Part shown: piece by piece, positions 7,653 through 55,761 of the stretch
How positions within the stretch are numbered: the stretch's first letter is position 1
How the letters are laid out: the number at the start of each line of letters is the position of its first letter
Origin: Planctomycetota bacterium
Lineage (GTDB): Bacteria > Planctomycetota > SZUA-567 > H5-PLA8
Direction of reading: 5' to 3'
Length of the DNA: 64,000 nt
NCBI GenBank assembly: GCA_015075375.1
Contig: JABTUM010000001.1
Location: 117,201 to 181,200, forward strand
Notes under the pieces: model-generated
Told to the model about the DNA's origin: nothing
Seen by the model: the letters and a program-made list of their open reading frames with translations, nothing else
Databases searched by the model: none
Program-made: the position numbers and the translations under genes

Positions 7653-7664
7653 GACCGTATAATC

Positions 7665-9859: not shown

Positions 9860-9868
9860 GCAACCATT

Positions 9869-23809: not shown

Positions 23810-23819
23810 GCCCTGAATC

Positions 23820-24512: not shown

Positions 24513-24552
24513 TAGATTCTCCTGAATCGTTCCATTAGGGCACCCGTCGCTC

Positions 24553-25653: not shown

Positions 25654-25684
25654 CCCGGGATCCCGGCGCGTCCCGATTCGTCCA

Positions 25685-26992: not shown

Positions 26993-27009
26993 ACCGCTGT
27001 TCCTTGCCG

Positions 27010-28182
27010 TTAGTTCGCCAAATCGCCCAAGACTTCGCCCGCATCCCCATCGAATAAGTACGAAATCGTGCGCTCCCCGTTGCGCGCGGTGACCACGTCG
27101 TACGGCGGAACGCCCCACGCGGCCATGCTCATGTCTTCATGCCCCGGCTCGAGGCCCAAGGTCGACGTGGTCTCCGGCGCGCGCATCTGGCCGCACTTGG
27201 GGCAACGCCCTTCCGCTTCGGTCACCTTACCCAACGAGCGAAAACACGCCTCCGTCTCGCCGCAAGCCGCGCAGCTAAGCCCGGTGACAAGATCGCGCGC
27301 AAGCTGCAGCACCGTCTCCGGCCCCAGCGCGCTGCGGGCGCGTTCGAGCAGCGCGCCGAGGGTCACCTCCGCCACGCCCCCGCCCAACGGTTCCAGTTCG
27401 GCAAAGCGCTCGTGCGCAAAGCACTCGGGCTTGCGCGTATACGTCACCAGGTAGGACTCGCCCGCCAGACCGTTGAACACGAAACCGCGACCGGCGATCG
27501 TCTCCAGTCCGTGGAGCAGCTTGACGGCCTCCTGCATCTGGAAGCCCGCGATGATGCTGGCCGTCGTCGGCGTGGTCGGTACTTTTCCTTCCTGAAGTTG
27601 TTCGCGCGTCAGCAGAGCGCACGAACGGCGGCTCTCGAGCATCTTCCAGTCGGTCTCGTTCATCGTGCACTCGTAGCACGGCCCATCCGGTGCAAAGACG
27701 CGCGCGACACCGTTCAGCACCTCGATCGCTCCGTCGATCCAGGTCTTGCCGGCAAAGAGGCTGGAACCGTTGATCGCGACTCGTGCTTCGCGGTTGTCGA
27801 GCCCGCCCAGGATCACATCGGCCCAAAAATAGACGCCCAGGCCCAGATCGTGGACCACGTTGCCTACGAACGGCTTCGCTTTGATGAGCGGATACAGTTC
27901 GCGCGCTGCGCGGCAGGCCACCTCGGCCTTGGGCTGCCCGCGGTCTGATTCTCTAAAGAGCGGCGAGCGCGTGAGATTGGAAAGCTCGATCCGGTCCATA
28001 TCCGCGACGAGGACGCGGCCGATGCCGAACAGCGCACAGTTCTTGACAAGCTCGTTGCCCAGCGCACCGGCGCCAATCACCAGCACCTTTGCGCGGCTCA
28101 GGCGCTCCTGCTCCCACCATGAAATGAGTTCGAAACGGCTGAAGCGGCTGTCGGCCGAGTCGTCCAGATTGACTTTGATCAA
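27010..28182 (-). CDS. E1-like ubiquitin-activating enzyme (ThiF/MoeB/HesA superfamily) with C-terminal zinc-ribbon extension
   Basis: The Rossmann/adenylation motif is RFSRFELISWWEQERLSRAKVLVIGAGALGNELVKNCALFGIGRVLVADMDRIELSNLTRSPLF. CxxC pairs (GPCYEC, CAACGE..CPKCG) are present. The gene apparently starts at a TTG. Confidence 0.8.
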   Translation of the reverse strand: MIKVNLDDSADSRFSRFELISWWEQERLSRAKVLVIGAGALGNELVKNCALFGIGRVLVADMDRIELSNLTRSPLFRESDRGQPKAEVACRAARELYPLIKAKPFVGNVVHDLGLGVYFWADVILGGLDNREARVAINGSSLFAGKTWIDGAIEVLNGVARVFAPDGPCYECTMNETDWKMLESRRSCALLTREQLQEGKVPTTPTTASIIAGFQMQEAVKLLHGLETIAGRGFVFNGLAGESYLVTYTRKPECFAHERFAELEPLGGGVAEVTLGALLERARSALGPETVLQLARDLVTGLSCAACGETEACFRSLGKVTEAEGRCPKCGQMRAPETTSTLGLEPGHEDMSMAAWGVPPYDVVTARNGERTISYLFDGDAGEVLGDLAN

Positions 28183-35444: not shown

Positions 35445-38400
35445 TCACCCACGAGTATGCCGCTCGTGGGAAGCAAGGAACGCCTTGCGATCCTTGCTGC
35501 CGCCCGTGTGCCGCGTGTTTTGTTGCAATCGCTCCACATGCTCCACGACGACCGTGACCACGCCGAACTCCTCCTCCGCTTTTCCGGACAGCAGAAACGG
35601 CCCGCCCAGACCCAGGCTGTCGCAGTACCGCGCATAGGCGCGCGGAAAAAAAGTGGTCTCGATCAGCCCCGTCTCGTCCTCGAAGGTGAGAAATTCCATC
35701 GGCTCGCCGCGCCGGGTGTGAACCACCTTGCCGGTAATCAGCCAACCGGCCAGGCAAACCCGCCGCCCGGCGCAGCGCTGCAGTGCGGCGGCCTTGACGA
35801 GATGGTCGGGAAGGAGTGCGCGGAACAGTTCCAGCGGATGTTGGTCGCACAGGAAACCGAGCACGTCGAACTCTCCGCGCAGCCGTTCCATCTCGGAAGT
35901 CGGCGTCAGGGCGGGTGGCGCGTTATCTTCCGCGGCATCGAAGAGGTTGGGGGCGGCCGCGCGCGCGGTGCGCTTGCGGCGCCCATGCCGCCAGGCGGCC
36001 AACTCCCAAAGCAGCGCGACGCGATCCCGCCCCGGCTCCAGGCCGTCGCACGCCCCCGCGCGTATCAAGGCGCGAGCCTCGGCTTCGTCGGGGCGCACGC
36101 GCTCCAGGAAATCCGCCAGCGTACGGTACGGACCTTCCGCGCGGCGCGCGACGATGCGCTCCATCGTTTCGGCGCCCAGACCCTTAACCGAGAGCAGTCC
36201 CGTGCGCACGGCGCGGTCCTTGCCATGCCAGCGTACGTGCGACTCGTTCGCGTCGGGCGGCTGCACGGCCACACCCCAGCGCCGCGTCTCCGAGACATAG
36301 GCGAAGGCGTTGTAGAAACCGCCTTGATTGCTGATGACGGCGGCCATGAACTCGGCGGGATGATGGACCTTCAGGTACGCCGCCTGAAAACTCACGCGAG
36401 CGTAGCTGGCGCTGTGCGGCTTGCAGAACGAGTAGCCCGCGAAGGACATGATCATGTCCCACACCGCCTCCACGGTCTCGTTGGTGACGCCACGCGCCTT
36501 TGCTCCGGAGGCGAAGCGCGCGCGGTAGTCGGCCAGTTCGCGCTCCTTGTCCTTCTTCGAGAGCACCTTTCGCAGACGGTCGGCCTCGGTGTGATCGAAG
36601 CCCGCCAAGGCCATGGCGGCCTGCGAAACATGCTCCTGGTAAACCATGATGCCATAGCTCTCGTCCAGCACGTCGTTGAGGAGCGGATGGAACGGTTCCC
36701 ACGCGCCGCCACGCAGGCGCCGGATGTATTCGCGGATGTACTCGTTGGCGGCGGGCCGGACAAGGCTGGAGTGGATGACGAGGTGCGCGTAGTCGCCGCG
36801 CCCTGTCTTCTGCTGAAGCAGCCGCATGGCCGGGCTCTCGATGTAAAAACAGCCCATGGTCAGGCCCCGCGCGACGGCATCCTGTGTCGTCGAATCGTCC
36901 TCGGGTTCCCAACGCGCTTCGTCCAACGGCGTGCCGTTGGCGCGCAGGTTGGCTAGCGCGTCGCGGATCACGCCCAGGCTGCGGTTACCGAGCAGGTCGA
37001 TCTTGACCAGCCCCAGTTCCTCCGCGCCGTCCTTCTCCCACTGGACGATGGGCACGCCTTTCGGAGCCGTCTGAAGGGGCACGTACTCGGCGCTGGACCG
37101 GGGGGTGACGACGACGCCGCCCGAATGAACGGATAGGTAGCGCGGCACGCCAAGAATGCGCTGGGCCAGACGCAGGATATCCGGCCACGGCTCGGGAAAC
37201 TCCACGCGCCGCATCTCGGCCAAAGCCGCGAGGCTCTCCTGCAAGCCGCCCGTAGCGTCGTCGTCCTGCCAGAACCACGGGATACGCCCGGTCACGCGTT
37301 GGATCTCGCGGTCGGGCAGGCCGAAGACCTTCGCCACTTCGCGGATCGCCATGCGCGGCTGAAAAAGCACGTGGTTGCAGACCATGGCCGCGTGACCGGC
37401 GTATCGCGCCAGCACCTGTTCCAGTACGCCATCGCGCTCGTCCCAGGCGAAATCCACGTCGATGTCCGGGGGGTCGGTGCGGCCCGGATTCAGGAAACGC
37501 TCGAAGTAGAGGTTAAACTTGAGCGGACAGACGTTGGTGATGCCCAGACAGTACGCGACGATGGAGGCCGCCCCGGAACCCCGGCCGCAGATGCGGGGGC
37601 TCAGCCCCACGATCTCTTGGACCACCAGAAAGTAGTCCGCGAAGCCCTTGGCTTCGATGCTGTGCAGTTCGTGCTCGATGCGTGCCGTCATGCTGGCGTT
37701 GAGCGGCGCGCCGTAACGCTTGAGCGCCCCGGCATACGCGCGCTCCCGCAAAACCGCCGCCGCCGGCTGCCCAGACGAGTCGCGCCATTCGGGAAAAATG
37801 GAGCGCGTTTCCGGCCCGCTGAACGCGCAGCGCTCGGCGATCTCGTGCGTGGCGGCGAGGGCTTCGGGGCAAACCTCGAAACGGCGGCGATACGCCTCCG
37901 GCGGGGCCAGCCAGGCGTCCGGCGGAGCCACGTCGCCGGGAACCAGGCGCGAGACGGCGCTGTTGCGTTCGATGGCGCGCAGAACACGATGGACCTCGTG
38001 ATCCTCCGGGCTCAGCAGGAAGCTCCCCGGCACGGCCACGAGCGGGAGGTCGAACCGTTGGGCCGTCGCGCGCAGGACGCCGAAGTTTCCGGCGGGTTTA
38101 CGCGGCACGCCGGCGGCGACGCGCACGCCCGCGCCGTGCCAGGTCTCCAGAGCGGCCGGATCGTTGCACAAGACCGTCAACCCCGCCGCATGGCGCGGCA
38201 GCGCCGAAGCCAACTCGAAGGCCGCGTCGCGGTGGCGCGCCGTCAGCATCCGGCACAGGTTGCGGTAGCCCTCGGCGTTTTCGACCAGGCAGACGGCTCG
38301 GAGAAGCGAGGCGCGATCCGTCAGTTCCGCGCCGACGATGGGCGTCAACCCTTCGCGGCGGCAACTCTTCAAGAAGACGGGCAACCCGTACAGGTTGTCG

Positions 38401-38525
38401 GTATCGGTCAGCGCAAGCCGCGTATAGCCCATGCGCCGCGCGGTCCGGCACAGTTCCTCGACGCCCGGTGTGCCCCATAGCAGGGAGAAGTACGAGCGGA
38501 CACACAGAGGGATCATCGGCGTCAT
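35445..38525 (-). CDS. dnaE2: error-prone DNA polymerase III alpha-like subunit DnaE2 (ImuC)
   Basis: The PHP domain N-terminus MTPMIPLCVRSYFSLLWGTPGVEEL..ALTDTDNLYG is followed by the polymerase core. At about 1027 aa it lacks the DnaE1 C-terminal extension. It lies downstream of an imuB-like gene and lexA. The start is trimmed from the 1302-aa ORF, whose Arg-rich N-terminus is an overlap artefact. Confidence 0.85.
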   Translation of the reverse strand: MTPMIPLCVRSYFSLLWGTPGVEELCRTARRMGYTRLALTDTDNLYGLPVFLKSCRREGLTPIVGAELTDRASLLRAVCLVENAEGYRNLCRMLTARHRDAAFELASALPRHAAGLTVLCNDPAALETWHGAGVRVAAGVPRKPAGNFGVLRATAQRFDLPLVAVPGSFLLSPEDHEVHRVLRAIERNSAVSRLVPGDVAPPDAWLAPPEAYRRRFEVCPEALAATHEIAERCAFSGPETRSIFPEWRDSSGQPAAAVLRERAYAGALKRYGAPLNASMTARIEHELHSIEAKGFADYFLVVQEIVGLSPRICGRGSGAASIVAYCLGITNVCPLKFNLYFERFLNPGRTDPPDIDVDFAWDERDGVLEQVLARYAGHAAMVCNHVLFQPRMAIREVAKVFGLPDREIQRVTGRIPWFWQDDDATGGLQESLAALAEMRRVEFPEPWPDILRLAQRILGVPRYLSVHSGGVVVTPRSSAEYVPLQTAPKGVPIVQWEKDGAEELGLVKIDLLGNRSLGVIRDALANLRANGTPLDEARWEPEDDSTTQDAVARGLTMGCFYIESPAMRLLQQKTGRGDYAHLVIHSSLVRPAANEYIREYIRRLRGGAWEPFHPLLNDVLDESYGIMVYQEHVSQAAMALAGFDHTEADRLRKVLSKKDKERELADYRARFASGAKARGVTNETVEAVWDMIMSFAGYSFCKPHSASYARVSFQAAYLKVHHPAEFMAAVISNQGGFYNAFAYVSETRRWGVAVQPPDANESHVRWHGKDRAVRTGLLSVKGLGAETMERIVARRAEGPYRTLADFLERVRPDEAEARALIRAGACDGLEPGRDRVALLWELAAWRHGRRKRTARAAAPNLFDAAEDNAPPALTPTSEMERLRGEFDVLGFLCDQHPLELFRALLPDHLVKAAALQRCAGRRVCLAGWLITGKVVHTRRGEPMEFLTFEDETGLIETTFFPRAYARYCDSLGLGGPFLLSGKAEEEFGVVTVVVEHVERLQQNTRHTGGSKDRKAFLASHERHTRG

Positions 38526-39712
38526 CCGGCAGCCAGCGTGCGGCCCATGCGAACGGCGCACGCCCCGAACTTGGCGCGAATGGCATCCAGCGCCGCACAA
38601 AGGTCCGCCTCGTGCCGGGACGCACCCGCTGCTTCGGGAAACAGATCCAACTGCGCGGGCGGGTAGACCAAGCGGTCGCAGAGGAGCCGCAGATGCCGTA
38701 CGCGCATCCTGCGCGTCCAGGCGCGTTCGAGCGCCGCGCGGGTCAGCTCGAAGAGCCGGATGTCGCCCGCCGTGGCTTCGGTCGTCGTGGCGTTGCGGGA
38801 TACGCGCGCGCCGTCGGAATAATCCAGCAGCACGCCGACGCGACGCGCGGCCAGACCGCGCGCGCGCAGTTCTCGACCGGCACGCTCGGCCAGCGCGCAC
38901 GCCGCGCCCAGAACCGCCGGAGCGTCGTTGGTATCCGACGGGAATACGTGGTCTCCGGCGACCACGGGGGGCTTGCGGTCCACTGCCAGAACCGGGGCGG
39001 TGTCCACGCCGCGAACCGTCGCGTGAAGCTGAGCGGCGCGCGCCGGACTGCCTACCGCGACTTCGAGCTGCCGCGGCGAGAGCGCCGCCACCTCGCCCGC
39101 GCGCCATAGATGGAACTCGCGCAAACGAAACAAGTCGTCGCGCTCGATGCCAGGCACAAGCTGGATGGGCACCGGTTTCAGGGCGGCTTCCTCGTCGCCG
39201 AAGGCGATGTGGCGTTCGCCGTACGGCTTGACGAGCCGCGAGGCAACTTTGGCGACCAACTTGTTGGAGGCCACCGACCAGATCGGATGGAAGCCCAGAT
39301 CCCAACGGAACGACCGGCGGATGCGTTCGGCTACGTCCGGCACAGGCCCCCATAGCCGTCCGGTTCCGGTCATGTCGAGGAACAGATGGCCGTTCTCGTC
39401 GGCGGCCTCGATAAGCGGAGTGTAAGGCCGCGCACGTTCGATAAGCGCCAGCATGGCGCGCTCGTACCGGTCGCGGCGCAGCGGGAGCACCTCGGCGTCG
39501 CGCTCGATCCGCCTCGCGTGGTCCAGGCGCATACCTTTGCGCACGCCCGCGAGGAACGCCTCGTCGCTCATGTCGAAAACGCAGGCCCGCGCCGCGCCTT
39601 CCGGTGCGACGATCACCGGCCGCCCGCGCAAGCCCGGCGCCAGCACCCGTTCCACCGCGACGGCAAAGTCAGCCACGTTGAAGTGAATGATCGTACGAGG
39701 TTCACAGGCCAT
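38522..39712 (-). CDS. imuB: ImuB-like catalytically inactive Y-family DNA polymerase
   Basis: This is a Y-family fold. The N-terminus MACEPRTIIHFNVADFAVAVE carries N and A at the positions of the catalytic D-x-D of DinB (HVDMDAF), the ImuB hallmark. The start is trimmed to MACEP. The stop overlaps the dnaE2 start. Confidence 0.8.
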   Translation of the reverse strand: MACEPRTIIHFNVADFAVAVERVLAPGLRGRPVIVAPEGAARACVFDMSDEAFLAGVRKGMRLDHARRIERDAEVLPLRRDRYERAMLALIERARPYTPLIEAADENGHLFLDMTGTGRLWGPVPDVAERIRRSFRWDLGFHPIWSVASNKLVAKVASRLVKPYGERHIAFGDEEAALKPVPIQLVPGIERDDLFRLREFHLWRAGEVAALSPRQLEVAVGSPARAAQLHATVRGVDTAPVLAVDRKPPVVAGDHVFPSDTNDAPAVLGAACALAERAGRELRARGLAARRVGVLLDYSDGARVSRNATTTEATAGDIRLFELTRAALERAWTRRMRVRHLRLLCDRLVYPPAQLDLFPEAAGASRHEADLCAALDAIRAKFGACAVRMGRTLAAG

Positions 39713-39714
39713 GG

Positions 39715-40590
39715 TTAACGCGCCTCCCAGCCGCGCGCGCGCAGCAGTCGCCGCAGCGTCCAGGCGTTCTTGACCGCCTGCCCCCGCACGTGGTTGTTGA
39801 AGAAGATCACGCCGCGCAGCGCGGCCTGCGCCATCGGCTCGAGATACCGCACGATCCACTCGCTGAGTTCCGCGTCGGAGTACGAATAGTCGAACTTCCG
39901 CTCCATGCGCCCGGAGCCCCAGCCCTTCGCGTTGCGGCCGTGGAAGCGTGCGTAAAAAAGCCGCGCGTCCGTCACGCGCGCCAGCGGCGGGAAAAGCCCC
40001 GGCAAGTCCGGCTCGTCCACGGCGGCCAGAGTCACGCGCCGGCGCGCCAGTTCCCGGAAAACCCGTTCGTGGTTCCACGAGGCGTGCCGGAACTCGACGG
40101 CCACGGGCAGGCCCTCCAACGCATCGAGCAGCGCGGCAAGGTGCTTGCGATTCGCGGCGCTCCGGCTGAACTCCGGCGGAAACTGCGCGAGCACTGCCGC
40201 CAATTGCCTGGACTGCGCAAGCGGCGCGATGCCGTCGCGGTACTGCGCCGCTTGCGCCTTCCAGCCGCCGTCCACTTGATGCGTCAGCGTGCGCGTAAGC
40301 TTCGCGGCGAAGAGAAAACCGTCGGGAGCCTCGCGGCGCTGGCGCTCCACGGCGTCGGCCTTGGGCAACTGGTACCACGTGTAGTTCAACTCGACGGTGG
40401 AGAACTTCGACGCGTAATGGCGCAGCATGCGCGCGGTGCTCAAGCCCTCGGGATAAACGCCCGCCGCGATCCACTCGGGGTAGGAGTAGCCGCTGGTGCC
40501 GATCCAAAGCTCGGCGTTCGAGCTTTGTTCGGTATGCGCGGCGGCAAACGCTCCAGACGTGGCCTTTGGCGGCAACACGGATTCTCCCAC
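39715..40590 (-). CDS. DUF72 (YecE/UPF0759) family protein in the imuA position of the mutagenesis cassette
   Basis: The N-terminal motif LWIGTSGYSYPEWIAAGVYPEGL..LRHYASKFSTVELNYTWYQLP matches DUF72. The gene is packed tightly between lexA and imuB. Confidence 0.75.
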   Translation of the reverse strand: MGESVLPPKATSGAFAAAHTEQSSNAELWIGTSGYSYPEWIAAGVYPEGLSTARMLRHYASKFSTVELNYTWYQLPKADAVERQRREAPDGFLFAAKLTRTLTHQVDGGWKAQAAQYRDGIAPLAQSRQLAAVLAQFPPEFSRSAANRKHLAALLDALEGLPVAVEFRHASWNHERVFRELARRRVTLAAVDEPDLPGLFPPLARVTDARLFYARFHGRNAKGWGSGRMERKFDYSYSDAELSEWIVRYLEPMAQAALRGVIFFNNHVRGQAVKNAWTLRRLLRARGWEAR

Positions 40591-40595: not shown

Positions 40596-41213
40596 CTACG
40601 CAAGTGTTCGGCGAACTTCGATAACTCGGCCCAGAATGGAAAGGCGTTCCGGGTCGGGCCGCAGTACGGGAAAGGCGGGGTGAGCAGGCCGCAATTCGAC
40701 CCGGCTTCCGCGCCGGTGAAAAAACTTCACGGTGGCCTCGTCGTCCACGAGCGCGACGACGACATGGCCATGCTCGGCGCTGGGCTGCCGGCGCACGATC
40801 ACCACATCGCCGGGCAAAATATGCGCTCCGCTCATGCTTTCGCCCTGCACGCGCAAAGCGAACAGGTTCTCGGGCGCGACGCGCGAACGAACCGCCAAGT
40901 AGCCTTCCACATCTTCCAAGGCGGGCTGGAACGCCCCCGCCTGCACACGCCCGAGGATCGGCACCTGCACGGTCGCGCCCGGCAGCGCCGCTTCCCCCGG
41001 CAGGCGCAGCCCGCGCGAGCGGCCTTCGTCACGCGCGAGCAGCCCGTCGCGCACCAGCCGCTCAAGCTGCTCCTGCGCGCTCTTGACGTTCTTGAAGCCG
41101 AGATGCGCCTGGACCTCGCGTACGGTCGGCGGCATCCCAGCCAGGATGCGTTCGCGGACGAAGGCATGGATGCGCGTGCGCGTGTCTTGAGCCACGGTGA
41201 GTCTCCACCCCAA
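40596..41213 (-). CDS. lexA: LexA repressor
   Basis: The N-terminal HTH (MPPTVREVQAHLGFKNVKSAQEQLERLVRDGLL) is followed by the S24 peptidase domain with a Ser-Lys dyad (QGESMSGAHI ... ATVKFF). The start is a TTG at 41213 or a GTG at 41195. Confidence 0.85.
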   Translation of the reverse strand: MGWRLTVAQDTRTRIHAFVRERILAGMPPTVREVQAHLGFKNVKSAQEQLERLVRDGLLARDEGRSRGLRLPGEAALPGATVQVPILGRVQAGAFQPALEDVEGYLAVRSRVAPENLFALRVQGESMSGAHILPGDVVIVRRQPSAEHGHVVVALVDDEATVKFFHRRGSRVELRPAHPAFPVLRPDPERLSILGRVIEVRRTLA

Positions 41214-41218
41214 GTAAT

Positions 41219-41246
41219 ACCCAACAAATGTTGGGTGTCAAGACAC
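41219..41246. promoter_or_regulatory. two overlapping perfect palindromes immediately upstream of lexA (candidate LexA operator)
   Basis: ACCCAACA-AA-TGTTGGGT (41219..41236) and GTGTC-AA-GACAC (41235..41246) are both perfect inverted repeats. They lie 6-33 nt upstream of the lexA start. Confidence 0.45.
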
Positions 41247-41599
41247 TCGGGAGGTCTGCCCGCCACCGGTTCCGGCTGCGGGTACCGAACCGACCATTCA
41301 CTCCAGCCCGCGCATGGGCCTCCGATTTCGCTTCGCTCATCCGGAAGCCCATGCGCAAAGAGGTACCAACAGCACAAGAGCCGCATCCAAAGCGGACCTA
41401 ATGCGAGGAGCACCTCACCTAGCGAGTTTCTCTCGCTAAGCCTGGATCGGTTTTTGGGAGCAGGTCACGCTTGGTGGTTCGCTACGACCGCGACATAAGG
41501 AGCTATTAAGCGTTCTTTCAACGAGCGGGTCTGCCAATCGCTTTGAGGTACTTATGAAGCCCGCTTCTCGCTTGTAGAAATAGTTAGAGGCCGTTTGAC

Positions 41600-44500
41600 T
41601 CAAGGTTTCCAGGACGTTCCGGCCCGCCTTAGCCGTACGCGTTGTTCGCCGCCGGATGAGTCTGCTTCGATGCCGATAAGGAATTCGCTAACGACTCGTG
41701 GATCGCTGCGCGAATCGAGTACCGGAGCGATCCCAAAGCTGCCTGTGCCGGGTGTAGCAGGGAGCCAATTTGTAATAATCGTGAGCGTGGCGCGTCCGGC
41801 ATCCCATCGCAAGCTCGATACACCGGTCAGCGCCACGGTCTTGGGCCGCAGGTATTGTTGCAAACCTTCGCCAAGAATCACGAAACCCGTTGAGCCGACC
41901 GATCCGTCACCCACATCTTCTTCGTACTGACCCAGCCGAAGCGCCGCGCCGCCCGCACCCGCCGGATTAAATGGAGCACCGGCCATCGGCACGAACTGAA
42001 CCGTCGCCTGAACCCGCTGCTCCAAAACACCTTTTGAGGATCGTTGCGAAACGGCAGCCTTGGTTACGAAGAAAAGCCCGCCCGGAATCGGATGCTCGGG
42101 ACGAGCCAGGCGGAAAATTCCCTTACCCGAGGAGCCTACGCGTGAGCACGTGTATCGCGTGCCCAACAGCGCCAAACTCGACCAGCCTCCCGTGCCGCCA
42201 ATGCGCAGTGCTACCGGCACCATCACCAGTCGGTTCGAGATTCCCGCGGCATTCTCGGCACCCAATGCGTCAAGGCTCTCGGCCAAGTCTATGCCGCTAA
42301 GCGCCACACTCACCGCGCCCGTTTTCGGGCTGTACGTGACCTTTAGGTTCGGAATCGCTCCACGCGGCGACTGCCAGACGACCGAAGTGGATGACGATGA
42401 ACTGGGAGACGCCAGCGAAGCACTTGCCCCTCCTACGTCAACCTCGACCTGTTTCCCGGAAAGTTGCTCCGGATTCAGCCCAGCATCCAGCAAAGATTGG
42501 GCGTTAACCTTTCCGCTTAACGTGAACGAGTCCACATACGGGTGCGCGATCGTCTTCTTACCGAAGTTCAGCGTGTACTTCGTCTGGCTCACGAGCAACC
42601 CCGTGTGTTTGATCAGTCCCGTCACCTCCACGAACAGTTCCAACACGTCTTGCCCGCCCTCTTCGTCCGTCACCACCACCGTGACTCGGTACACCCCCGG
42701 CGCGGCGTAGATATGTTCGGGGTTCGGTTCCGTGGAAGTCTGCCCGTCTCCAAAGTCCCATAGCCAGGTGTGCGAATCGCCTGCGTCGGCGTCGGCCACT
42801 TCGGCAACGAAAGCAAACGGATCGCCGGGATCGGTGCCGAAGGGGCCGTCCGAGCCACCCATTACGGTCAGTTTCGGTAAGTCGTTCACGTTCCCCACGG
42901 TGATCGTGACCGCGGTGACGTTCGATTCCGCCCCCAGGGCGTCCACGGCGCGATACGTGAACCCATCGGATCCTTGGTAATCAGTGGCCGGCGTGTACGC
43001 AAAGGTGCCGTCCTCGTTCAGCGTAAAGGCCGCCGCGTGCGCGGGACTATCCACAAGCTCAGCGGTAATCGGCGTATTCGATTCGCCCGGCGCGCCGCCG
43101 TGCGCGTCGCTGTCGTTAGCGAGCACGGAAGTTCCTGTCAGCGCCGTGTCTTCACTCGTGCCATATAGGTCTGCCAACGTGACGGGCGCATCGTTGATTC
43201 CGTTGACGGTGAGCGTCACTATCGTATCGCTCGATGCCGAACCCAGCGCATCTACAGCGCGGTAACTGAAAACATCGGAGCCGTTGTACTCTGCGGCCGG
43301 CGTGTAGGTGAAGGTGCCATCCTCATTCAAGGTGAAGGCGGCCGCGTGCACGGGGCCATCCACAAGCTCAGCCGTAAGCGGCGTATTCGACTCGCCCGGC
43401 GCGCCGCCGTGCGCGTCGCTGTCGTTGGCGAGCACCGAACTTCCAGTCAGTAAGGTGTCCTCATTCGTGGTGTATGCGTCCGCTACGGTCACAGGAGAGT
43501 CGTTCAAACTCCCCACCGTGATCGTGACCGCGGTGACGTTCGATTCCGCCCCCAGGGCGTCCACGGCGCGATAGGTGAACCCATCGGAACCTTGGTAATC
43601 GGTGGCCGGCGTGTACGCAAAGGTGCCGTCCTCGTTCAGCGTAAAGGCCGCCGCGTGCGCGGGGCCATCCACAAGCTCAGCGGTAATCGGCGTATTCGAT
43701 TCGCCCGGTGCGCCGCCGTGCGCGTCGCTGTCGTTAGCGAGCACGGAGGTTCCAGTCAGCGCCGTGTCTTCATCCGTCGCGTAAGAGTCGGCGGTTGTGG
43801 CTGGCGCGCGATTGAGTTCGAAATCGAATTCCGCGTGCCCGCCCGCGTCGCCGTCCCCAGTCGGGAACGAATCGCCCCCACCGGAGTTTTCGCCGTCCAG
43901 CGCGTTACCGTCTAAGTCCTTCAGGCCTCCAGAAAGCAGGCGCAGACGGTACTTCCCCCGCGCCCATACGGTTGGGTTAAAGGTCGCACGTATGCGTTGT
44001 GGCGTTTCAAGGCTCAACGTTTCCAGGGGCACTGCGACGTCGTCGGCCGTGCCTAGCGCCTCGTCGTCGCCCGCGTACTGCAGCAGGATGCTCTCCGCGA
44101 TCGCACTATCCGCATCCAACGGTTCATCGAACTCAGCCACGACCTCCTGGGGCGGCGCGCCGAGCGGCCCCGGCGCCGGCAGCAGCGAGAGCACGCGCGG
44201 AGCCGGCGCAGCCACAGTAAAATCGGCCACAAAATCGCCGCCTTCTTCTCCGTCGCCCGATGGAAGACCGGAACCAAGATTGAATTCGCCATCGAGTGCG
44301 TAGCCCGACTCGCCGTAGATACTGTGGCTAGCTTCCACGATTTCCATCGAGGTGCTGGCCCCCGGCGTGTAGCCTTCCAAAAGCTCGATCGTATGGGTCC
44401 CAACGAACAGCCAGTCTAGATCCACTTGGCAGACCAGTCCCGTCGGCGTTAGCGTCAGCGTTCCCGTAGAAAAGATCCCCGGGCTCACGCGCACGCCAAA

Positions 44501-47500
44501 GCGCGCCGGAACGGATGAGGTTGCTCCCGTTCCGGACCACGTGGGAAGATGGGCGCCGGCGATGACGAGTTCTATGACGCTGCCTTTTGCGGCCGCGCGT
44601 GGCACCGCCGCATGCAGCACCGGAGGGGGCGTCACTTCGAACCCGCCGGGTAATAATGCTTCCACTCCGTCAGGATTGATCAGCACCACGTCCCATGTCC
44701 CGGGAAAGCACCCGGCGAGATTCAGATCGAATTCCAGGCTGCCCGCCCCGATTAGCCGTTCGTTCGTCGCGGCGATCTTTGGTTGTCCTTCCATCCTCAA
44801 CTCGACCTGCGGGGGTATGCGCTTCACATATTCGCAAACGTACGGGCGCGAAGAAGCGGTAGTGTCTTTCCAGGACAGCCCATGGGCGTAGGCGACATAT
44901 TGTTCGGATGTGCTGTTCGGCTCTCCATCGGCCCACGCCGTGTATCCGACTGCTTCCCCATTATCCCACACGTTCGTTTCGGTTGCCGTCGGGTCGTTCA
45001 GCCCGATCCATCCGTTGGCACGCCCGTTTAGCCGCCAAACAAACTCATTCTCGGCCGCGTCGCCCAGCGTGACCAAGTGGCCGCCTTGGCTTGCACACTG
45101 CGACCGCGCGCTCGTCCAGGAAACGCCCTCCTTGATGTAACGGTAATACCTTCCAGCATAGGGAACCGCGCCCGCCGTATACGCAATACGGCCTTCCTGG
45201 AAGCCCGTCCCTGAAAGCACGATTTTGTCTGGACTACTGCCCGTCCACGATCCGCTCAAATCCACGCCAATCACTGTCGGCGTGGAAAGCGCCGAAGTCA
45301 CACTGAACTGAAACGCGGCGGACGCCGGTAGGGCATTGCCGAATCGGTCGCGTGCGGACGGAGTCTGGATCGTCACGGTGTACGTCGCGCCTGAATCCCA
45401 TAAGCCTGCGGGCGTGAACGTCAGCGTTCGATGATCCGACCAGACCCAGGTTCCCGATACCGTGCCACCGGTGATGCTGGCCACGTCTCCCGCCGCGACA
45501 CTCGTGTCCATCGGTTCGCTGAAGGAGACTATCAGATCCTGCCAACGAGGCGCATGACCGGGTGAGTCCCCGCAATAGAAGGATTCGACGCTCGGGGGGA
45601 GCGGATCTTGAAGCATGAAGCGCAAGTCCGTCATGTCCGTGCCGTCAGGGTTGGCGAATGCGAGGCTGAAGCGGTCCCCTCCCGTATCTTCATGGTGTTT
45701 GAGGAGGACTGAGTGCCAACCGGCCGCGAGAGGAATAACCGTATCGAGATCGCCCTGCGCGGAAAGAGGGTTGGAGTTCTGATCCACGAAAATCTGCAAC
45801 TCCCGGTCCGCATGCGCCAGGACGCGTACATCGCGGGCAGTGGGCGCGTACAGATAGAGCGCGGCATAGCCGACATAGTTATCGCCGAGGTCTTCGTGCC
45901 AATCCCCGTCGTCGTCGGCATCGGTCAGGTCAGTCCAGACCATCTGCGTAGTCGACGGTAAGCCGCGCATGGGGTAGTGCTGTCCGACGCTGGGCTGGTG
46001 GCGCTCCTCCGCGACTTCGCCCGAATAGATCATGTAGTCCCAAAGGATGTCCACGCCATCGGCGGGCGAACCGGTCATACGTCCGGTGCTTGGGCCCAGA
46101 TGCAGCAGGCGCTTTACCTTGCCCGCCGGGAGAGGGAAACCGTTCACGTTCAGCGTCACCGTGGCGATGGCGCTGTCGCCGTCGGAATCGCGCGCCACGT
46201 ACGTGAATGCGTCGGGGCCTTCGTATCCAGGCTCGGGCGTGTACGTAAAGGAGCCGTCAGGGCGTAGATCTAGCGTCCCGTGCGCGGGATCGCTCTGCTT
46301 AACGGCCTCGATGGGCCCGCCGTTGAAATCATCGTCGTTAGCTAGCACACCGCGGTACGAAGCGATCTCGTGGACCGGCGCGCCGGGCAAGTCGTAACGG
46401 TCGTTCTGAGTTACCGGCGGCGGATGAGCCAGATTAAGGATTTCCAGCGCGCTCAGCGCCCGCCCATACAAACGCGCATCGTCTATCCGTCCGGGCGTGC
46501 GGTTGGTTGCCGTACTGGTGCCTCCAATGAAGACGTTGTCGCTGCCGTACTCCAGCAAGCCGAAAAGGTGCGTTGCCTTGGCGCGCTCCTGGCCGTCTAC
46601 GTAGAGGATTGCGGCGCCCGATTCGGAATCGTATGTCGCGGCGAAGTGATGCCATTCGTTCAGATAGGCCGCGTTGAGCTGCGTATCGAACACGTATATA
46701 TCGGGCGCATTGACGCGATCGATTCGGAATTGGAGACGCCCGTCAGCGTGGCTCCAGCGCAGGAACGGACCAAGCGAGGATGAGCCGTTGCGCATCAGAT
46801 CCGAATGCTGTCCACTGCCGCTACGAGTCTGCGTCATACGCGCCCACAACGCGAAGGTGATCGCGTTGGCGGGTTTCAAACTGGGCGTGCTAAAGACCTG
46901 TACGTAGCCTAAGGTGTCCGGATAACTGGCTGCGAAACCCTCTGGGCTGGGCCCCCAGGTCGCACCGCTGGAAAGGATTGCCGTTCGACCCTTGCCCGAA
47001 CTGTCAGCCGACGATGAGCCAACACCCTCATTGAACTTCCAATGGCCCAGCGTATAGGTGTTTCCCGCCGGTGCGACGACGATCCGGACCGTGACTGCCT
47101 CCGAATACAAGCCTCCCGCCAGCACGCGGTAGGTGAAGGAGTCCTCGCCCGTGAAAAGGGCATGGGGCGTGTACTGCAGCGAGCCGTCGGCGTTCAGCGT
47201 CACGCTGCCGTTCGTGGGATCGCTCAACTTCTCGGCGTTCAGTTCGTCGCCGTTGACGTCCAAGTCGTTGACCAACACCCCGGGCGCCGGCTGGTTGAGC
47301 GGCATGTCTCGAGCCGTATACAACACGTCATTCTTGGCCATCGGCCCGACAGGCGCGAAGTCCGCTCTCAGATCCTCTTCGTTGATGGTACGGCCGTAGA
47401 TGCGTATATCGTCAAGTTGGCAGTGCGGCGGAAATACGGCGCTGCCGAATTGCGTGATGTGCGGCAGAGATGACCCGCTACCGGAGGTAAGAGCGGAATG

Positions 47501-48892
47501 GTAGCGGCCATTAATATAAAGCCGGTAGGGCCCCAAGCCCGGGTTGACAATCGCGATATGGACCCACTTATTTAGTGGCACCGTGTAATTGAAATAGTTC
47601 TTGATGTCGGCGTTTAGGTAGTCGGAAATGTACAGCTTACCCAGATCGTTCACGCCGATGCTCTGAAAATTCGGCGAAGAGGTGAAGTTCCCGAATGTCT
47701 GCTCGACCGAAATCTCGGCCAAGCGGTTGACCCAAAAGCTCACGGCTTGAGGCTGCGCGATCTCGCGCTCCAGCGTCACGACACGATGGGCGGCATCCAA
47801 CTGCAAAGCACCGGCAGCGATGCCGGGTATCCAGGCCGTATCGTCGGAAAGCGTGCCGGGATTGGGCAACGCGCCTAAGTCCGCGACCGCCGTACCCGTC
47901 ATCTCGTCGAACGGGTAATGCGATATCTGCCCGCCCAGGATCAGATAAACCGTCGCGGGTGCCGTAGTAAACGTGCCATCGCTGGCCGAGTAAGTGAACG
48001 AATCCAGTCCCCGATAGCCTCCGAAAGGCGTATACGAAAATTGACCGTTGGAGTTAACGCTCAGCGTACCGTGTTGCGGATCGCTCTCCTTTTGAGCCGT
48101 AATCGCGTCGCCGTTGGGATCGTACGCTCGATTGAGCACCCCGGGCAAAGTGGCCTGGAAGACCTCCTCGGAAGGCACCGAGAAATATCGATCCTTGATA
48201 ATCTGCGGCGGGAGCGGAGGAATCAGGTCCGCGACTTCCGTGCTGCCGAGCGCGCGGCTGTACAGCCGGAAGTCGTCGAGCGTACCTTTCAGAGTTCCTT
48301 CGCCGCCGCCGCCCAGATTCTGAATACTCAGGGCCATGCTTTTGCTCAGAGTGCTCTTAAGAGAACCGTCCACGTATAGCTGCGTAGTACTCCCGTTGCA
48401 GACGAATGCCAGATGCACCCATCTCCCGTCGATTGGCGCCGAATAAACGAAGCTGGAGAGAAAGTCGCCGGCGGTGCCGGTCGTACGCGTGATCCCGACA
48501 TTCATGTTCCAAGAAGGCCACTGCTCCAGCAGAATCTCGGAGGTAGGCGAGTAGACGATCTTGCTGTTCGAACCACCGCTGAATTCGCGACGCACCCACA
48601 CCGCCGCCGTCCACGGCGCAGGGATTTCCGGCACGTTCAAGCTCACGTGGTCGTCCACGCCGTCGAACTTCAGCCCGCCGCCCAAGAGGCCGGGCACCCA
48701 TTGCGGATTCTGAACCAAAGTCCCGTGGTAGGCGTTGGCGCTCTCGTCGAAGGCCGTCGGGCCGGACCCTTCGTCGAAGGTCAGGTGGACAACGAGATCG
48801 TCCTGCGCGGAAGCTGGAATACAGGCGAAACAGATGCAGGCCAGCAGCGCCAACCGCTGGAGCCATCCGTTTTCGATACCGTTTGCTTGCAT
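41600..48892 (-). CDS. giant secreted adhesin-like protein (2430 aa) with LamG/concanavalin-like, C-type lectin, PKD and tandem cadherin/Ig-like repeat domains
   Basis: A signal peptide MQANGIENGWLQRLALLACICFACIPASA is present. LamG-like regions (LDDFRLYSRAL, LDDIRIYGR) are interspersed. The C-type lectin segment is WTSARSQCASQGGHLVTLGDAAENEFV..WIGLND..YVCEY. The PKD segment is WDFGDGQTSTEPNPEHIYAAPGVYRVTVVVTDEEGG. Three to four near-identical roughly 100-aa repeats (TADSYATDEDTALTGTSVLANDSDAHGGAPGESNTPITAELVDGP..) also occur. Confidence 0.8.
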   Translation of the reverse strand: MQANGIENGWLQRLALLACICFACIPASAQDDLVVHLTFDEGSGPTAFDESANAYHGTLVQNPQWVPGLLGGGLKFDGVDDHVSLNVPEIPAPWTAAVWVRREFSGGSNSKIVYSPTSEILLEQWPSWNMNVGITRTTGTAGDFLSSFVYSAPIDGRWVHLAFVCNGSTTQLYVDGSLKSTLSKSMALSIQNLGGGGEGTLKGTLDDFRLYSRALGSTEVADLIPPLPPQIIKDRYFSVPSEEVFQATLPGVLNRAYDPNGDAITAQKESDPQHGTLSVNSNGQFSYTPFGGYRGLDSFTYSASDGTFTTAPATVYLILGGQISHYPFDEMTGTAVADLGALPNPGTLSDDTAWIPGIAAGALQLDAAHRVVTLEREIAQPQAVSFWVNRLAEISVEQTFGNFTSSPNFQSIGVNDLGKLYISDYLNADIKNYFNYTVPLNKWVHIAIVNPGLGPYRLYINGRYHSALTSGSGSSLPHITQFGSAVFPPHCQLDDIRIYGRTINEEDLRADFAPVGPMAKNDVLYTARDMPLNQPAPGVLVNDLDVNGDELNAEKLSDPTNGSVTLNADGSLQYTPHALFTGEDSFTYRVLAGGLYSEAVTVRIVVAPAGNTYTLGHWKFNEGVGSSSADSSGKGRTAILSSGATWGPSPEGFAASYPDTLGYVQVFSTPSLKPANAITFALWARMTQTRSGSGQHSDLMRNGSSSLGPFLRWSHADGRLQFRIDRVNAPDIYVFDTQLNAAYLNEWHHFAATYDSESGAAILYVDGQERAKATHLFGLLEYGSDNVFIGGTSTATNRTPGRIDDARLYGRALSALEILNLAHPPPVTQNDRYDLPGAPVHEIASYRGVLANDDDFNGGPIEAVKQSDPAHGTLDLRPDGSFTYTPEPGYEGPDAFTYVARDSDGDSAIATVTLNVNGFPLPAGKVKRLLHLGPSTGRMTGSPADGVDILWDYMIYSGEVAEERHQPSVGQHYPMRGLPSTTQMVWTDLTDADDDGDWHEDLGDNYVGYAALYLYAPTARDVRVLAHADRELQIFVDQNSNPLSAQGDLDTVIPLAAGWHSVLLKHHEDTGGDRFSLAFANPDGTDMTDLRFMLQDPLPPSVESFYCGDSPGHAPRWQDLIVSFSEPMDTSVAAGDVASITGGTVSGTWVWSDHRTLTFTPAGLWDSGATYTVTIQTPSARDRFGNALPASAAFQFSVTSALSTPTVIGVDLSGSWTGSSPDKIVLSGTGFQEGRIAYTAGAVPYAGRYYRYIKEGVSWTSARSQCASQGGHLVTLGDAAENEFVWRLNGRANGWIGLNDPTATETNVWDNGEAVGYTAWADGEPNSTSEQYVAYAHGLSWKDTTASSRPYVCEYVKRIPPQVELRMEGQPKIAATNERLIGAGSLEFDLNLAGCFPGTWDVVLINPDGVEALLPGGFEVTPPPVLHAAVPRAAAKGSVIELVIAGAHLPTWSGTGATSSVPARFGVRVSPGIFSTGTLTLTPTGLVCQVDLDWLFVGTHTIELLEGYTPGASTSMEIVEASHSIYGESGYALDGEFNLGSGLPSGDGEEGGDFVADFTVAAPAPRVLSLLPAPGPLGAPPQEVVAEFDEPLDADSAIAESILLQYAGDDEALGTADDVAVPLETLSLETPQRIRATFNPTVWARGKYRLRLLSGGLKDLDGNALDGENSGGGDSFPTGDGDAGGHAEFDFELNRAPATTADSYATDEDTALTGTSVLANDSDAHGGAPGESNTPITAELVDGPAHAAAFTLNEDGTFAYTPATDYQGSDGFTYRAVDALGAESNVTAVTITVGSLNDSPVTVADAYTTNEDTLLTGSSVLANDSDAHGGAPGESNTPLTAELVDGPVHAAAFTLNEDGTFTYTPAAEYNGSDVFSYRAVDALGSASSDTIVTLTVNGINDAPVTLADLYGTSEDTALTGTSVLANDSDAHGGAPGESNTPITAELVDSPAHAAAFTLNEDGTFAYTPATDYQGSDGFTYRAVDALGAESNVTAVTITVGNVNDLPKLTVMGGSDGPFGTDPGDPFAFVAEVADADAGDSHTWLWDFGDGQTSTEPNPEHIYAAPGVYRVTVVVTDEEGGQDVLELFVEVTGLIKHTGLLVSQTKYTLNFGKKTIAHPYVDSFTLSGKVNAQSLLDAGLNPEQLSGKQVEVDVGGASASLASPSSSSSTSVVWQSPRGAIPNLKVTYSPKTGAVSVALSGIDLAESLDALGAENAAGISNRLVMVPVALRIGGTGGWSSLALLGTRYTCSRVGSSGKGIFRLARPEHPIPGGLFFVTKAAVSQRSSKGVLEQRVQATVQFVPMAGAPFNPAGAGGAALRLGQYEEDVGDGSVGSTGFVILGEGLQQYLRPKTVALTGVSSLRWDAGRATLTIITNWLPATPGTGSFGIAPVLDSRSDPRVVSEFLIGIEADSSGGEQRVRLRRAGTSWKP
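42870..43810. repeat. roughly 300-bp near-identical tandem DNA repeats (3-4 copies) inside the adhesin gene
   Basis: The same protein block appears in overlapping plus-strand ORFs 42984.., 43308.. and 43592... The minus-strand product shows the repeats ..VLANDSDAHGGAPGESNTP.TAELVD.P.HAAAFTLNEDGTF.YTPA.. Confidence 0.7.
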
Positions 48893-50811: not shown

Positions 50812-51265
50812 ACCACGCAGCAAGCGCCGCGAGATTGCTCCGCGCCTCACCGGCCGCGCACGCGCAAGCCTCCACCCATTCGTCCATCGCCACGGGCGCG
50901 CCCTTGCCCGCAGCCCCGCAGGGGCGACATACTAAAGCGAGGGGCGCGAGCCCCTCGACCCAAGCACCCCTCTCCATCAGGAGCCCTGAAAGGGCGACCT
51001 AAAGCCACCCCGAACCGAAGAACTCCGAGCGCCTCACCGAGATCCTCCGCCGAACAGCCACGAGCGGATGCCGGAGAATGGAGGGCGCGGTAGCCGAACC
51101 GATCCACACATCACGCGCGGCCGATTCCCGCGCTCCCCGTCGTCGCACGCAGCGCTTCGCGCCCCTCCCACCCGCCTGCGTTCGTCTCTGCTATTCTACT
51201 TTTTCTTCGACGGCTTCTTCATCCCCTGTTCCGCCATGCGAAGAGTTTTTGCGTAGGACGGCGGG
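50812..51265. repeat. mosaic repeat unit (B-module + 3' half of A-module + linker + tail)
   Basis: Modules recur at 51580, 52274, 53505, 54403, 55345 and 56934. The unit contains GC hairpins GAGGGGC-gcga-GCCCCTC and GCCCC-tgc-GGGGC. Confidence 0.7.
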
Positions 51266-52273: not shown

Positions 52274-52835
52274 CACCCTTAAAGCGGGTAGCCCGCACAA
52301 ATCTCCGATTTGTGTGGGTGAGCTTGCGAACAAGAGGCACACCGCAGGCCCCACGAAGTCACCTCTTGACACGATTTCCGCCGAACAGCCACGAGCGGAT
52401 GCTGGAGGATGGAGGGCGCGGTAACCGAACCAATCCGCACTTCACGCGCGGCCGATTCCCGCGCCGGGTGCCGCGGAGCAAGCGCCGTGAGCTTGCTCCG
52501 CGCCTCACCTCACCGGCCGCGCACGCTCAAACCTAGCGCCCATCATCCACCGCCACGGGCGCGCCCTTGCCCGCAGCCCCGCAGGGGCGACATACTAAAG
52601 CGAGGGGCGCGAGCCCCTCGACCCAAGCACCCCTTTCCATCAAGAGCCCTGAAAGGGCGACCTAAAGCCACCCCGACCCGAAGAGCACCGAGCGCCTCGC
52701 CGGCCGCGCACGCACAAGCATCCACCCCTTCGTCCACCGCCACGCGCTCGCCCTCTGCCGCCCGCCTACTCTACTTTTTCTTCGGCGGCTTCTTCATCCC
52801 CTGTTCCGCCACGCGAAGACGGTATGCGTAAGACC
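52274..52835. repeat. full-length repeat unit (A + linker + B + tail), about 560 bp
   Basis: This is the longest copy. It shows that the A and B modules found separately elsewhere can be contiguous. Confidence 0.75.
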
Positions 52836-53504: not shown

Positions 53505-53842
53505 CCGGGTGCCGCGGAGCAAGCGCCGTGGGCCTGCTCCGCGCCTAACCGACCACCGCCACGGGCGCGCCCTTGCCCGAAGCCCCGCAGGGGCGACATG
53601 CTAAAGCGAGGGGCGCGAGCCCCTCGACCCAAGCACCCCTCTCCATCAAGAGCCCTGAAAGGGCGACCTAAAGCCACCCCGACCCGAAGAACACCGAGCG
53701 CCTCGCCGGCCGCGCACGCGCAAGCCTCCACCCCTTCGTCCCCCGCCACGCGTTCGCCCTCTGCCGCCCGCCTATTCTACTTTTTCTTCGACGGCTCCTT
53801 CATCCCCTGTTCCGCCACGCGATGAGGGTTTGCGCAGGACGG
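53505..53842. repeat. repeat unit (linker + B-module + tail)
   Basis: The sequence matches the 52480..52835 portion of the full unit. Confidence 0.75.
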
Positions 53843-55344: not shown

Positions 55345-55761
55345 CTTACGGAATGGCGGGTGCCGGGACCGGGCGCCACGCAACAAGCGCCGTGGGCTTG
55401 CTCCGCGCCTCACCGGCCGCGCACGCGCAACCCTCCACCTACGCATCCACCGCCACGCGCTCGCCCTTGCCCGCAGCCCCGCAGGGGCGACATACTAAAG
55501 CGAGGGGCGCGAGCCCCTCGACCCAAGCACCCCTCTCCATCAAGAGCCCTGAAAGGGCGACATAAAGCCACCCCGACCCGAAGAACACCGAGCGCCTCAC
55601 CGGCCGCGCACGCGCAAGCCTCCACCCCTTCGTCCACCGCCACGCGCTCGCCCTCTGCCACCCGCCTATTCTACTATTCCTTCGGCGGCTCCTTCATCCC
55701 CAGTTGCGCCACGCGAAGAGTTTTTGCGGAGGACGCACGCGATGAGTTTTTGAGTAGGACG
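55345..55761. repeat. repeat unit (linker + B-module + tail, with a partially duplicated tail end)
   Basis: The sequence ends ..GCGAAGAGTTTTTGCGGAGGACGCACGCGATGAGTTTTTGAGTAGGACG, which is two tandem tail ends. Confidence 0.7.

Follow-up and report, generated by a model that had tools for sequence, protein, structure and literature searches.

The lexA operon and its promoter region

The 64,000-nucleotide stretch of DNA from a Planctomycetota bacterium analyzed here (referred to as the window) carries a lexA gene with two overlapping inverted repeats upstream, which an earlier annotation (the sequence-only reading) had put forward as a candidate lineage-specific LexA box. lexA is followed on the same strand by genes for a DUF72 protein, a homologue of Y-family polymerases and a DnaE2-like polymerase (Table 1). 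Only 5 nt separate lexA from the DUF72 gene and 2 nt the latter from the Y-family polymerase gene, and the start of the dnaE2-like gene overlaps the stop of the Y-family polymerase gene by 4 nt. We read these genes as a lexA-led mutagenesis operon. The Y-family polymerase homologue matches the NCBIfam DNA polymerase IV models below threshold, and the DnaE2-like protein reaches 579 bits with NF004225 ('error-prone DNA polymerase'), which is below the cutoff; its synteny is kept in relatives.

The LexA protein contains the Pfam domains PF01726 (LexA_DNA_bind) and PF00717 (Peptidase_S24), passes the NCBIfam equivalog model TIGR00498 for lexA (156.8 bits against a cutoff of 110.95) and aligns to the E. 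coli LexA structures. The A87-G88 cleavage site as well as S121 and K158 are invariant in 26 relatives. These features mark the protein as a genuine LexA in which cleavage site and catalytic residues are in place. Translation likely starts at the GTG at 41195, which has a GGAG sequence 7 nt upstream, is the start called in the 99% identical P0001 and is the position where the other relatives align. The TTG at 41213, which the sequence-only reading had taken as the start, probably lies too far upstream for this, and the repeats are located 24-51 nt upstream of the lexA start, not 6-33 nt as had been stated.

Table 1. Features of the lexA locus and of other parts of the window
Feature	Position	Strand	Remarks
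lexA	40596-41195	minus	199 aa; winged-helix DNA-binding domain and S24 self-cleaving peptidase domain
DUF72 protein gene	39715-40590	minus	291 aa; PF01904, E 5e-57; second gene of the putative operon
Y-family polymerase homologue, DinB/ImuY-like	38522-39712	minus	about 396 aa; PF00817 and PF11799; third gene
DnaE2/ImuC-like error-prone C-family polymerase gene	35445-38525	minus	about 1026 aa; PHP, DNA_pol3_alpha, finger, HHH_6 and OB domains
Shine-Dalgarno sequence GGAG	41203-41206	minus	predicted from the sequence
-10-like hexamer TATTAC	41214-41219	minus	putative; 4/6 to consensus; 16-nt spacer from the -35
Candidate LexA operator, 20 bp	41218-41237	minus	reads CACCCAACATTTGTTGGGTA; arms ACCCAACA/TGTTGGGT, centre TT, flanks C and A
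Larger inverted repeat	41219-41236		ACCCAACAAATGTTGGGT
Smaller inverted repeat	41235-41246		GTGTCAAGACAC
-35-like hexamer TTGACA	41236-41241	minus	putative promoter element; 6/6 to consensus
12-nt inverted repeat	41179-41190 / 41238-41249		CGCGTGTCTTGA / TCAAGACACTCG, 92%
Stem-loop	41310-41356		GC-rich; 15-nt arms by repeat finder
Giant open reading frame	41600-48892	minus	2430 aa; long internal repeats; ends just upstream of lexA
Giant open reading frame	9720-14354	plus	1544 aa; no Pfam match at E<=1e-5
Giant open reading frame	14335-19782	plus	1815 aa; no Pfam match at E<=1e-5
E2-like UQ_con gene	20977-21888	minus	ubiquitin-like cluster
Prokaryotic RING finger and trypsin-like protease gene	21885-23249	minus	ubiquitin-like cluster
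FHA/YscD-like gene	24553-25653	minus	ubiquitin-like cluster
JAB deubiquitinase-like gene	25685-27118	minus	ubiquitin-like cluster
ThiF/E1-like gene	27010-28182	minus	ubiquitin-like cluster
Acido-Lenti-1 small RNA copies	50912-50957, 52575-52620, 53581-53626, 55475-55520	minus	RF01687
Short repeat TGAGCTTGCGAACA	52319, 54438, 56969
Short repeat CACAAATC(T/C)CCGATTTGTG	52296, 56946

Both repeats are present as quoted and overlap by 2 bases. The larger one is an 8+2+8 structure, ACCCAACA-AA-TGTTGGGT, the smaller one a 5+2+5 structure, GTGTC-AA-GACAC. They had been called perfect palindromes, which is not strictly correct: the AA centre is not self-complementary in either repeat, and the 18-mer differs from its own reverse complement at 2 positions. 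On the minus strand the sequence runs GTGTC-TTGACA-CCCAACATTTGTTGGG-TATTAC-TTGGGGT-GGAG-ACTCACC-GTG, where the final GTG is the lexA start. If TTGACA and TATTAC are taken, on the basis of their sequence, as the hexamers of a sigma-70-like promoter, the larger repeat occupies their 16-nt spacer and is situated 24-41 nt before the GTG. The last base of TTGACA is the first base of the larger palindrome and the hexamer as a whole is the core of GTGTC-AA-GACAC, while the 18-nt palindrome ends in a T of TATTAC and the 20-mer in its TA. With 8-bp perfect arms and a 2-bp centre in a 20-bp frame, the site has a size and symmetry suited to a LexA dimer.

A scan of positions 40900-41700 listed neither a promoter nor a terminator. 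The scanner was silent on this promoter because its rule asks for T as the sixth base of a -10 hexamer, where TATTAC has a C. We nevertheless keep the putative promoter because TTGAC and TA are conserved in relatives. The smaller palindrome was rejected as an operator candidate: it is accounted for by the -35 hexamer together with chance symmetry, and in no relative is the sequence palindromic. As regards frequency, palindromes of the 5+2+5 type number 94 in the window, with 82 expected from shuffles, which is chance level, and there are five of the 8+2+8 type against 1.33 in mononucleotide shuffles. The larger palindrome by itself is thus unremarkable, and its weight comes from position and conservation.

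A 12-nt inverted repeat brackets the promoter and operator region, with one arm in the first lexA codons and the other over the -35. It was considered as a second site or looping element and set aside, as it is absent in relatives.

Conservation of the site in related lexA promoters

The same promoter and operator arrangement is found upstream of lexA in five closer relatives whose LexA proteins are 67-99% identical to that of the window. In L089 (99%) the site is identical. The other four carry TACCCAACAAACGTTGGGTA within the promoter TTGACT-ACCCAACAAACGTTGGGT-AT (L004, 73%), TACTCAACAAATGTTGAGTA within TTGACT-ACTCAACAAATGTTGAGT-AT (L086, 68%), TACCCGACATTTGTCGGGTA within TTGACT-ACCCGACATTTGTCGGGT-AG (L087, 67%) and TACCCGTAATATTACGGGTA within TTGACT-ACCCGTAATATTACGGGT-AT (L001, 71%). 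All five sites directly follow TTGAC(T/A), and the dyad symmetry is kept via changes on both arms, with CAACA/TGTTG, CGACA/TGTCG and CGTAA/TTACG as the symmetric variants. Two further relatives have diverged: L003 (65%, a Planctomycetota metagenome-assembled genome) has a 21-nt version, TACCGAACATGATGTACGGTA, and L088 (61%) a different dyad, ACACTCATCTGAGTGT. In an alignment of six promoters (L004, L086, L087, L001, L003 and the window, with L089 left out), the invariant columns are the TTGA of the -35 and, in the operator, AC and GTA at its ends as well as a single A inside. Between these columns, the operator sequence varies symmetrically. The frame common to the relatives and the window is TACC-NN-ACA-WW-TGT-NN-GGTA. 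The core CAACA-N2-TGTTG, which had been proposed as the box of the lineage, is therefore not its conserved part, since relatives with 67-71% identical LexA proteins have CGACA/TGTCG or CGTAA/TTACG instead.

Furthermore, a wider LexA clade was collected by scanning one genome per GTDB species. Eighty loci were fetched, of which 79 were analysable, with LexA proteins 50-62% identical to that of the window. They span more than 10 phyla, with members in Acidobacteriota, Binatia, Planctomycetota, Spirochaetia, Hydrogenedentota, Verrucomicrobiota, Desulfobacterota, Chromatiaceae and other groups. At 74 of the 79 loci, the lexA promoter contains a homologous 20-mer, TACCAGACAWWTGTCTGGTA (consensus also written TACCAGACAAATGTCTGGTA; spelled out, T-A-(C/A)-C-A-(G/T)-A-C-A-W-W-T-G-T-(C/A)-T-G-G-T-A). 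The LexA tblastn match begins a median of 37.5 nt away from it. It usually follows a hexamer of the TTGACA or TTGCAT type and closes in the TA of a TAnnnT hexamer, with TATACT, TATCAT, TATTGT and the like at the -10 position. In the register of the clade the window site reads c-A-C-C-C-A-A-C-A-T-T-T-G-T-T-G-G-G-T-A. It retains the ACC, ACA, TGT, GGT and terminal A of the clade and departs from it at the symmetric positions 5-6 and 15-16, with CA/TG where the clade has AG/CT or AT/AT; none of the 74 sites has C at position 5 or G at position 16.

A position weight matrix (PWM) was built from the 74 sites (training median 29.7 bits) and applied with a threshold of at least 14 bits. The matrix is highly specific: in 915 kb of loci it gave 73 matches, about 70 of them at lexA promoters. 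In L025, where a PIN-domain gene parts lexA from imuA-imuB-dnaE2, a second near-identical copy of the operator lies upstream of imuA. L030 has a strong copy (27.8 bits) upstream of a 242-aa open reading frame (ORF) that follows lexA in the imuA position and has no Pfam match; by eye, a weaker partial second copy can be seen before the same ORF. By its placement, the motif appears to mark two core SOS promoters in one genome, as expected of a LexA box. The L087 site (TACCCGACA...) scores 16.8 bits and is intermediate; closely spaced intermediates such as this one connect the window variant and the wide-clade operator.

The excess of 8+2+8 palindromes in the window is what one would point to if the repeat were a functionless chance palindrome. 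We consider this extremely improbable: position and symmetry are conserved in relatives with diverged flanks, a homologous site is present at nearly all of the distant lexA promoters, and the 67-73% LexA identity excludes very recent common ancestry as the source of an artefact.

In nearly all wide-clade loci a DnaE2-type gene lies about 2.2 kb downstream of lexA, corresponding to the classical lexA-imuA-imuB-dnaE2 layout, while the subclade of the window has the layout lexA-(DUF72)-Y-polymerase-DnaE2 instead. The DUF72 gene is found at the same position in L003, L087, L088 and L089 and, with the window and L010 included, stands between lexA and the Y-family polymerase gene, that is, in the place of imuA in classical cassettes. 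This conserved position suggests a role in the DNA damage response for this DUF72 subfamily. L001 has no DUF72 gene and has a gene for an SRAP-domain protein after dnaE2. In L010, a Planctomycetota metagenome-assembled genome, a low-GC insert of about 2 kb with two genes on the same strand (6640-8560) separates lexA from the DUF72-Y-polymerase-dnaE2 part; it has the look of a recent addition to the operon. L010 was also searched for a second operator in the interval from lexA to the DUF72 cassette, and none was found.

Covariation of the arms and the LexA recognition helix

Across 69 distinct operators, double-sided changes that preserve the dyad occur at all 9 arm positions. The number of double-sided cells is 59, as compared to 22.8 +/- 3.4 in shuffles (none of 500 shuffles was as high), and the signal collapses in slid registers. 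Arm covariation would equally be expected if the repeat acted as a nucleic-acid hairpin, e.g. a terminator, an attenuator or an mRNA-stability element, and not as a protein site. As a transcript, the 71-nt region would form a 7-bp stem at the repeat, in a fold of -27.5 kcal/mol (z = -2.5). In line with such an element, a metagenome scan with ACCCRACAWWTGTYGGGTA gave exact matches on 42 unrelated, mostly low-GC contigs, several of them with A-run and T-run flanks resembling bidirectional terminators; no homologue of LexA, DUF72, ImuB or DnaE2 was found near a match on these 42 contigs. In the window, however, no T-run follows the repeat and the terminator scan was empty. The repeat is located between conserved -35 and -10 hexamers and hence upstream of the predicted transcription start, and the much stronger stem-loop at 41310-41356 is better placed as terminator of the giant gene upstream. 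A hairpin would also leave unexplained why ACA/TGT and TACC/GGTA are near-invariant and why the site varies with the LexA recognition helix (see below). Taken together, a hairpin function is very improbable.

Two of the structures mentioned deserve a short description. Eight of the low-GC contigs (L092, L101, L106, L113, L114, L125, L128 and L130) have one locus in common, in which an A-run and TTGGTA flank AACCCAACATTTGTTGGGTA. This shared element is a conserved hairpin-like structure unrelated to LexA and just happens to be an exact match to the window palindrome. The stem-loop of the window pairs over about 19 bp when 91 nt are folded (-42 kcal/mol, z = -3.8) and has no T-run; it lies in the 385-nt gap from the end of the giant gene (41600) to the lexA promoter and is possibly a terminator or insulator.

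The variants of the operator appear to track the recognition helix alpha3 of LexA, as seen in a qualitative table over about 85 loci. Proteins with (S/T)AR(E/A/Q)HL mostly have the half-site CAGACA or CATACA, and those with RTAQQHL have CAT(A/T)CA. KNV(K/R)(S/A)AQEQ(L/I), the type that includes the window, goes with C(C/T)CAACA, GHVKSAQEQI with CCCGACA, and KHISSAQEQL with CCCGTAA. The alpha3 sequence of the window, KNVKSAQEQLERL, aligns with RSPNAAEEHLKAL of E. coli, and in the alignment to E. coli LexA the changed residues are at the positions of Asn41, Glu44 and His46 in helix alpha3. In the LexA-DNA structure of 2010, the base contacts are reportedly made by alpha3.

This association also bears on whether the repeat could be the operator of another dimeric transcription factor that co-regulates the lexA operon. 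Co-regulators of the damage response are known, such as DdiA of Myxococcus xanthus (PMC12288472) and the Deinococcus protein DdrO (PMC8072749). Here, however, no further regulator gene is conserved beside these operons, the operator changes in step with the recognition helix of LexA, and LexA as a rule controls its own gene via a dyad in the lexA promoter (PMC4951493, PMC8565304). We regard another regulator as quite improbable.

The larger repeat, in its 20-bp frame, is likely to be the operator at which a dimer of the LexA from the adjoining downstream gene represses the promoter of the operon of lexA, DUF72, Y-family polymerase and dnaE2-like genes. Transcription is predicted to start at about 41207, and a LexA dimer bound to the dyad between -35 and -10 would exclude RNA polymerase. 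Upon DNA damage, RecA filaments on single-stranded DNA would stimulate self-cleavage of LexA at Ala-Gly via the Ser/Lys dyad, the occupancy of the operator would drop, and the operon with LexA, DUF72 and the two translesion-type polymerases would be derepressed. Newly made LexA would then reset repression.

Several observations weigh against autoregulation by LexA at this site. The -10 hexamer TATTAC is weak and was passed over by the promoter scanner. The covariation test does not tell whether a protein dyad or a hairpin is at work, and it was run on phylogenetically related sequences. The wide-clade PWM gives the window site only 0.7 bits, because the symmetric positions 5, 6, 15 and 16 differ; the site is not a PWM match, so its homology to the clade motif is based on position and frame. 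The operator variant of the window has no second copy in the 64 kb, although these hold no other recognisable SOS gene, nor did it occur near a LexA homologue in the metagenome contigs. Within the window no further copy stood out in searches with the 18-mer (up to 3 mismatches), the frame ACCNNACANNTGTNNGGT (up to 2) or the 16-mer core (up to 3); the few other matches are inside giant ORFs and at chance frequency, and the wide-clade PWM gave nothing above 8.1 bits.

With regard to the LexA box suggested by the sequence-only reading, the 18-nt repeat is very likely an autoregulatory operator, as indicated by its place in the promoter spacer, the five relatives and the wide-clade loci; the second palindrome has no part in it. 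The half-site TACCC-A-ACA is very probably a lineage-specific retuning of the 20-bp operator TACCAGACA-WW-TGTCTGGTA that is used by the multi-phylum LexA clade linked to dnaE2 cassettes. A more far-reaching proposal, which we make tentatively, is that the LexA of the window belongs to this cross-phylum clade, that the Planctomycetota subclade retuned helix and operator together, and that DUF72 and an ImuY-like gene replaced imuA-imuB. Such a retuning, possible though not yet probable in our view, would have led from SAREHL to SAQEQL/I in the helix and from CAGACA to CCGACA, CCAACA and CCGTAA in the half-site, over a protein divergence of about 25-35%. If this is true, the loci form a natural stepwise series for the co-evolution of LexA and its own operator towards new specificity. 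LexA is a textbook case of a repressor with a repeatedly changed binding motif, and it is debated how repressor and sites can change together without losing control of mutagenic polymerases (PMC4951493, PMC8565304).

Known LexA boxes and the scope of regulation

By itself, a lexA that regulates itself through a palindromic operator comes as no surprise. Elements of this kind are textbook material; the sequence variant, the parent motif shared across phyla and the stepwise change of operator and alpha3 appear undescribed. No published description of the window motif or of a Planctomycetota LexA box was found in the literature; coverage of the older literature was incomplete, and a prior description is possible. 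The number of LexA motifs known by 2021 was about 17 (PMC8565304). For Planctomycetes LexA it has been reported that the E. coli motif is not used (PMC3108266), and the SOS response in the PVC superphylum (Planctomycetes-Verrucomicrobia-Chlamydiae) was called undocumented in 2016 (PMC4951493). The locus and its relatives supply a testable operator for a Planctomycetota LexA as well as the conserved operator of a multi-phylum LexA clade with a dnaE2 mutagenesis cassette. For annotation, the motif enables the prediction of SOS-regulated genes in uncultivated PVC bacteria.

The statement that the window operator is neither the E. coli nor the Gram-positive box was borne out, as neither CTGT-N8-ACAG nor GAAC-N4-GTTC occurs near lexA and window-wide counts are at chance. 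CTGT-N8-ACAG was not found with up to 1 mismatch in 41196-41600. The search for GAAC-N4-GTTC with up to 1 mismatch did not list the window site, which reads CAAC-ATTT-GTTG and has 2 mismatches, one per half-site. TGTTC-N4-GAACA was not found near lexA with up to 2 mismatches, and its window-wide counts are at chance, too.

By its spacing, we place the window box in the group xxACA-N2-TGTxx (= xxAC-N4-GTxx). The Gram-positive LexA/DinR (Cheo) box, CGAAC-N4-GTTCG, of B. subtilis, S. aureus and Actinobacteria (PMC9578287, PMC4951493) has the same spacing (xAAC-N4-GTTx), shares AAC-N4-GTT with the CAACA-TT-TGTTG of the window and likewise is a LexA operator that overlaps the promoter. The window site differs from it in the outer base of the half-site (C/G and not G/C, one base per half-site), in being a 20-bp dyad with conserved TACC/GGTA flanks, and in its LexA protein, which is closer to the proteobacterial type. 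The cyanobacterial box of Prochlorococcus, TAGTACA-N2-TGTACTA (PMC2921402), has the ACA-N2-TGT core and TA at both ends, and some members of the wide clade read TACCGTACATTTGTACGGTA; however, it has GT outside the core where the window has CCCA, and it is 16 bp long as compared to 20 bp.

The E. coli SOS box, TACTG(TA)5CAGTA or CTGT-N8-ACAG (PMC9578287), resembles the window site as a 20-bp dyad that starts with TAC, ends with GTA and serves lexA autoregulation by a LexA of the same family. The window site lacks CTGT/ACAG, and its information-rich bases are 1-3 bp further inward (CA-K-ACA). The sole motif from the PVC superphylum found in the literature is the Verrucomicrobia box TGTTC-N4-GAACA (PMC4951493). 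It is likewise present at lexA and lexA-imuA-imuB-dnaE2 promoters and contains TGTT/AACA elements, but the half-sites are inverted, with TGTTC...GAACA against CAACA...TGTTG in the window.

Cassettes linked to lexA have been described as lexA2-imuA-imuB-imuC in P. putida (PMC3901139, PMC5261740) and as lexA-imuY-imuB-C-dnaE2 in Deinococcus (PMC8072749). The operon in the window has a similar gene layout, with lexA first, followed by a Y-family and a DnaE2-type polymerase gene in an operon that is probably regulated by LexA itself, and it resembles the Deinococcus imuY type in the lack of imuA and in its DinB-like Y-family gene. It differs from both by the DUF72 gene that follows lexA and precedes the Y-family gene, and a stand-alone imuB-C is not visible.

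The P. putida case raises the question of how much the window LexA controls. A LexA dedicated to the cassette, like P. putida LexA2, would use the box for its own operon and not for an SOS regulon of the lineage with boxes at recA, uvrA and ruvAB. This concerns the scope of regulation and is compatible with the autoregulatory operator. P. putida LexA2 controls essentially lexA2-imuA-imuB-imuC alone (PMC3901139, PMC5261740); in Acidobacteria, Deltaproteobacteria and Opitutae, small regulons that leave out recA have been reported (PMC4951493). The clade is almost always located directly upstream of a dnaE2-type cassette, in the related loci scanned its motif is nearly confined to the promoters of lexA or imuA, and relatives with 55-62% identity are scattered over more than 10 phyla including Chromatiaceae, which suggests a mobile, self-regulated module. 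On the other hand, the scanned loci spanned only about 12 kb around each lexA. On balance, a cassette-dedicated LexA is a serious possibility that falls just short of being probable; recA, uvrA and ruvAB could then, with the same reservation, be controlled by another LexA, by another regulator or by nothing.

Cassette-type LexA proteins are also present in Chromatiaceae (loci L026, L034 and L060 and P0061 of Thiococcus pfennigii), and Chromatiaceae carry the wide-clade operator. This family was stated in 2011 to be without LexA homologues (PMC3108266). The occurrence is consistent with a horizontal spread of the lexA-cassette module.

Apart from the lexA locus and the giant ORFs (Table 1), two other regions of the window stand out. 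The minus strand carries four copies of the Rfam small RNA Acido-Lenti-1 that score 43-46 bits against a gathering score of 37, and short repeats occur in the same region; copies and repeats together suggest a tandemly repeated module. The genes at 20977-28182, also on the minus strand, form a cluster that resembles a bacterial ubiquitin-like conjugation system.

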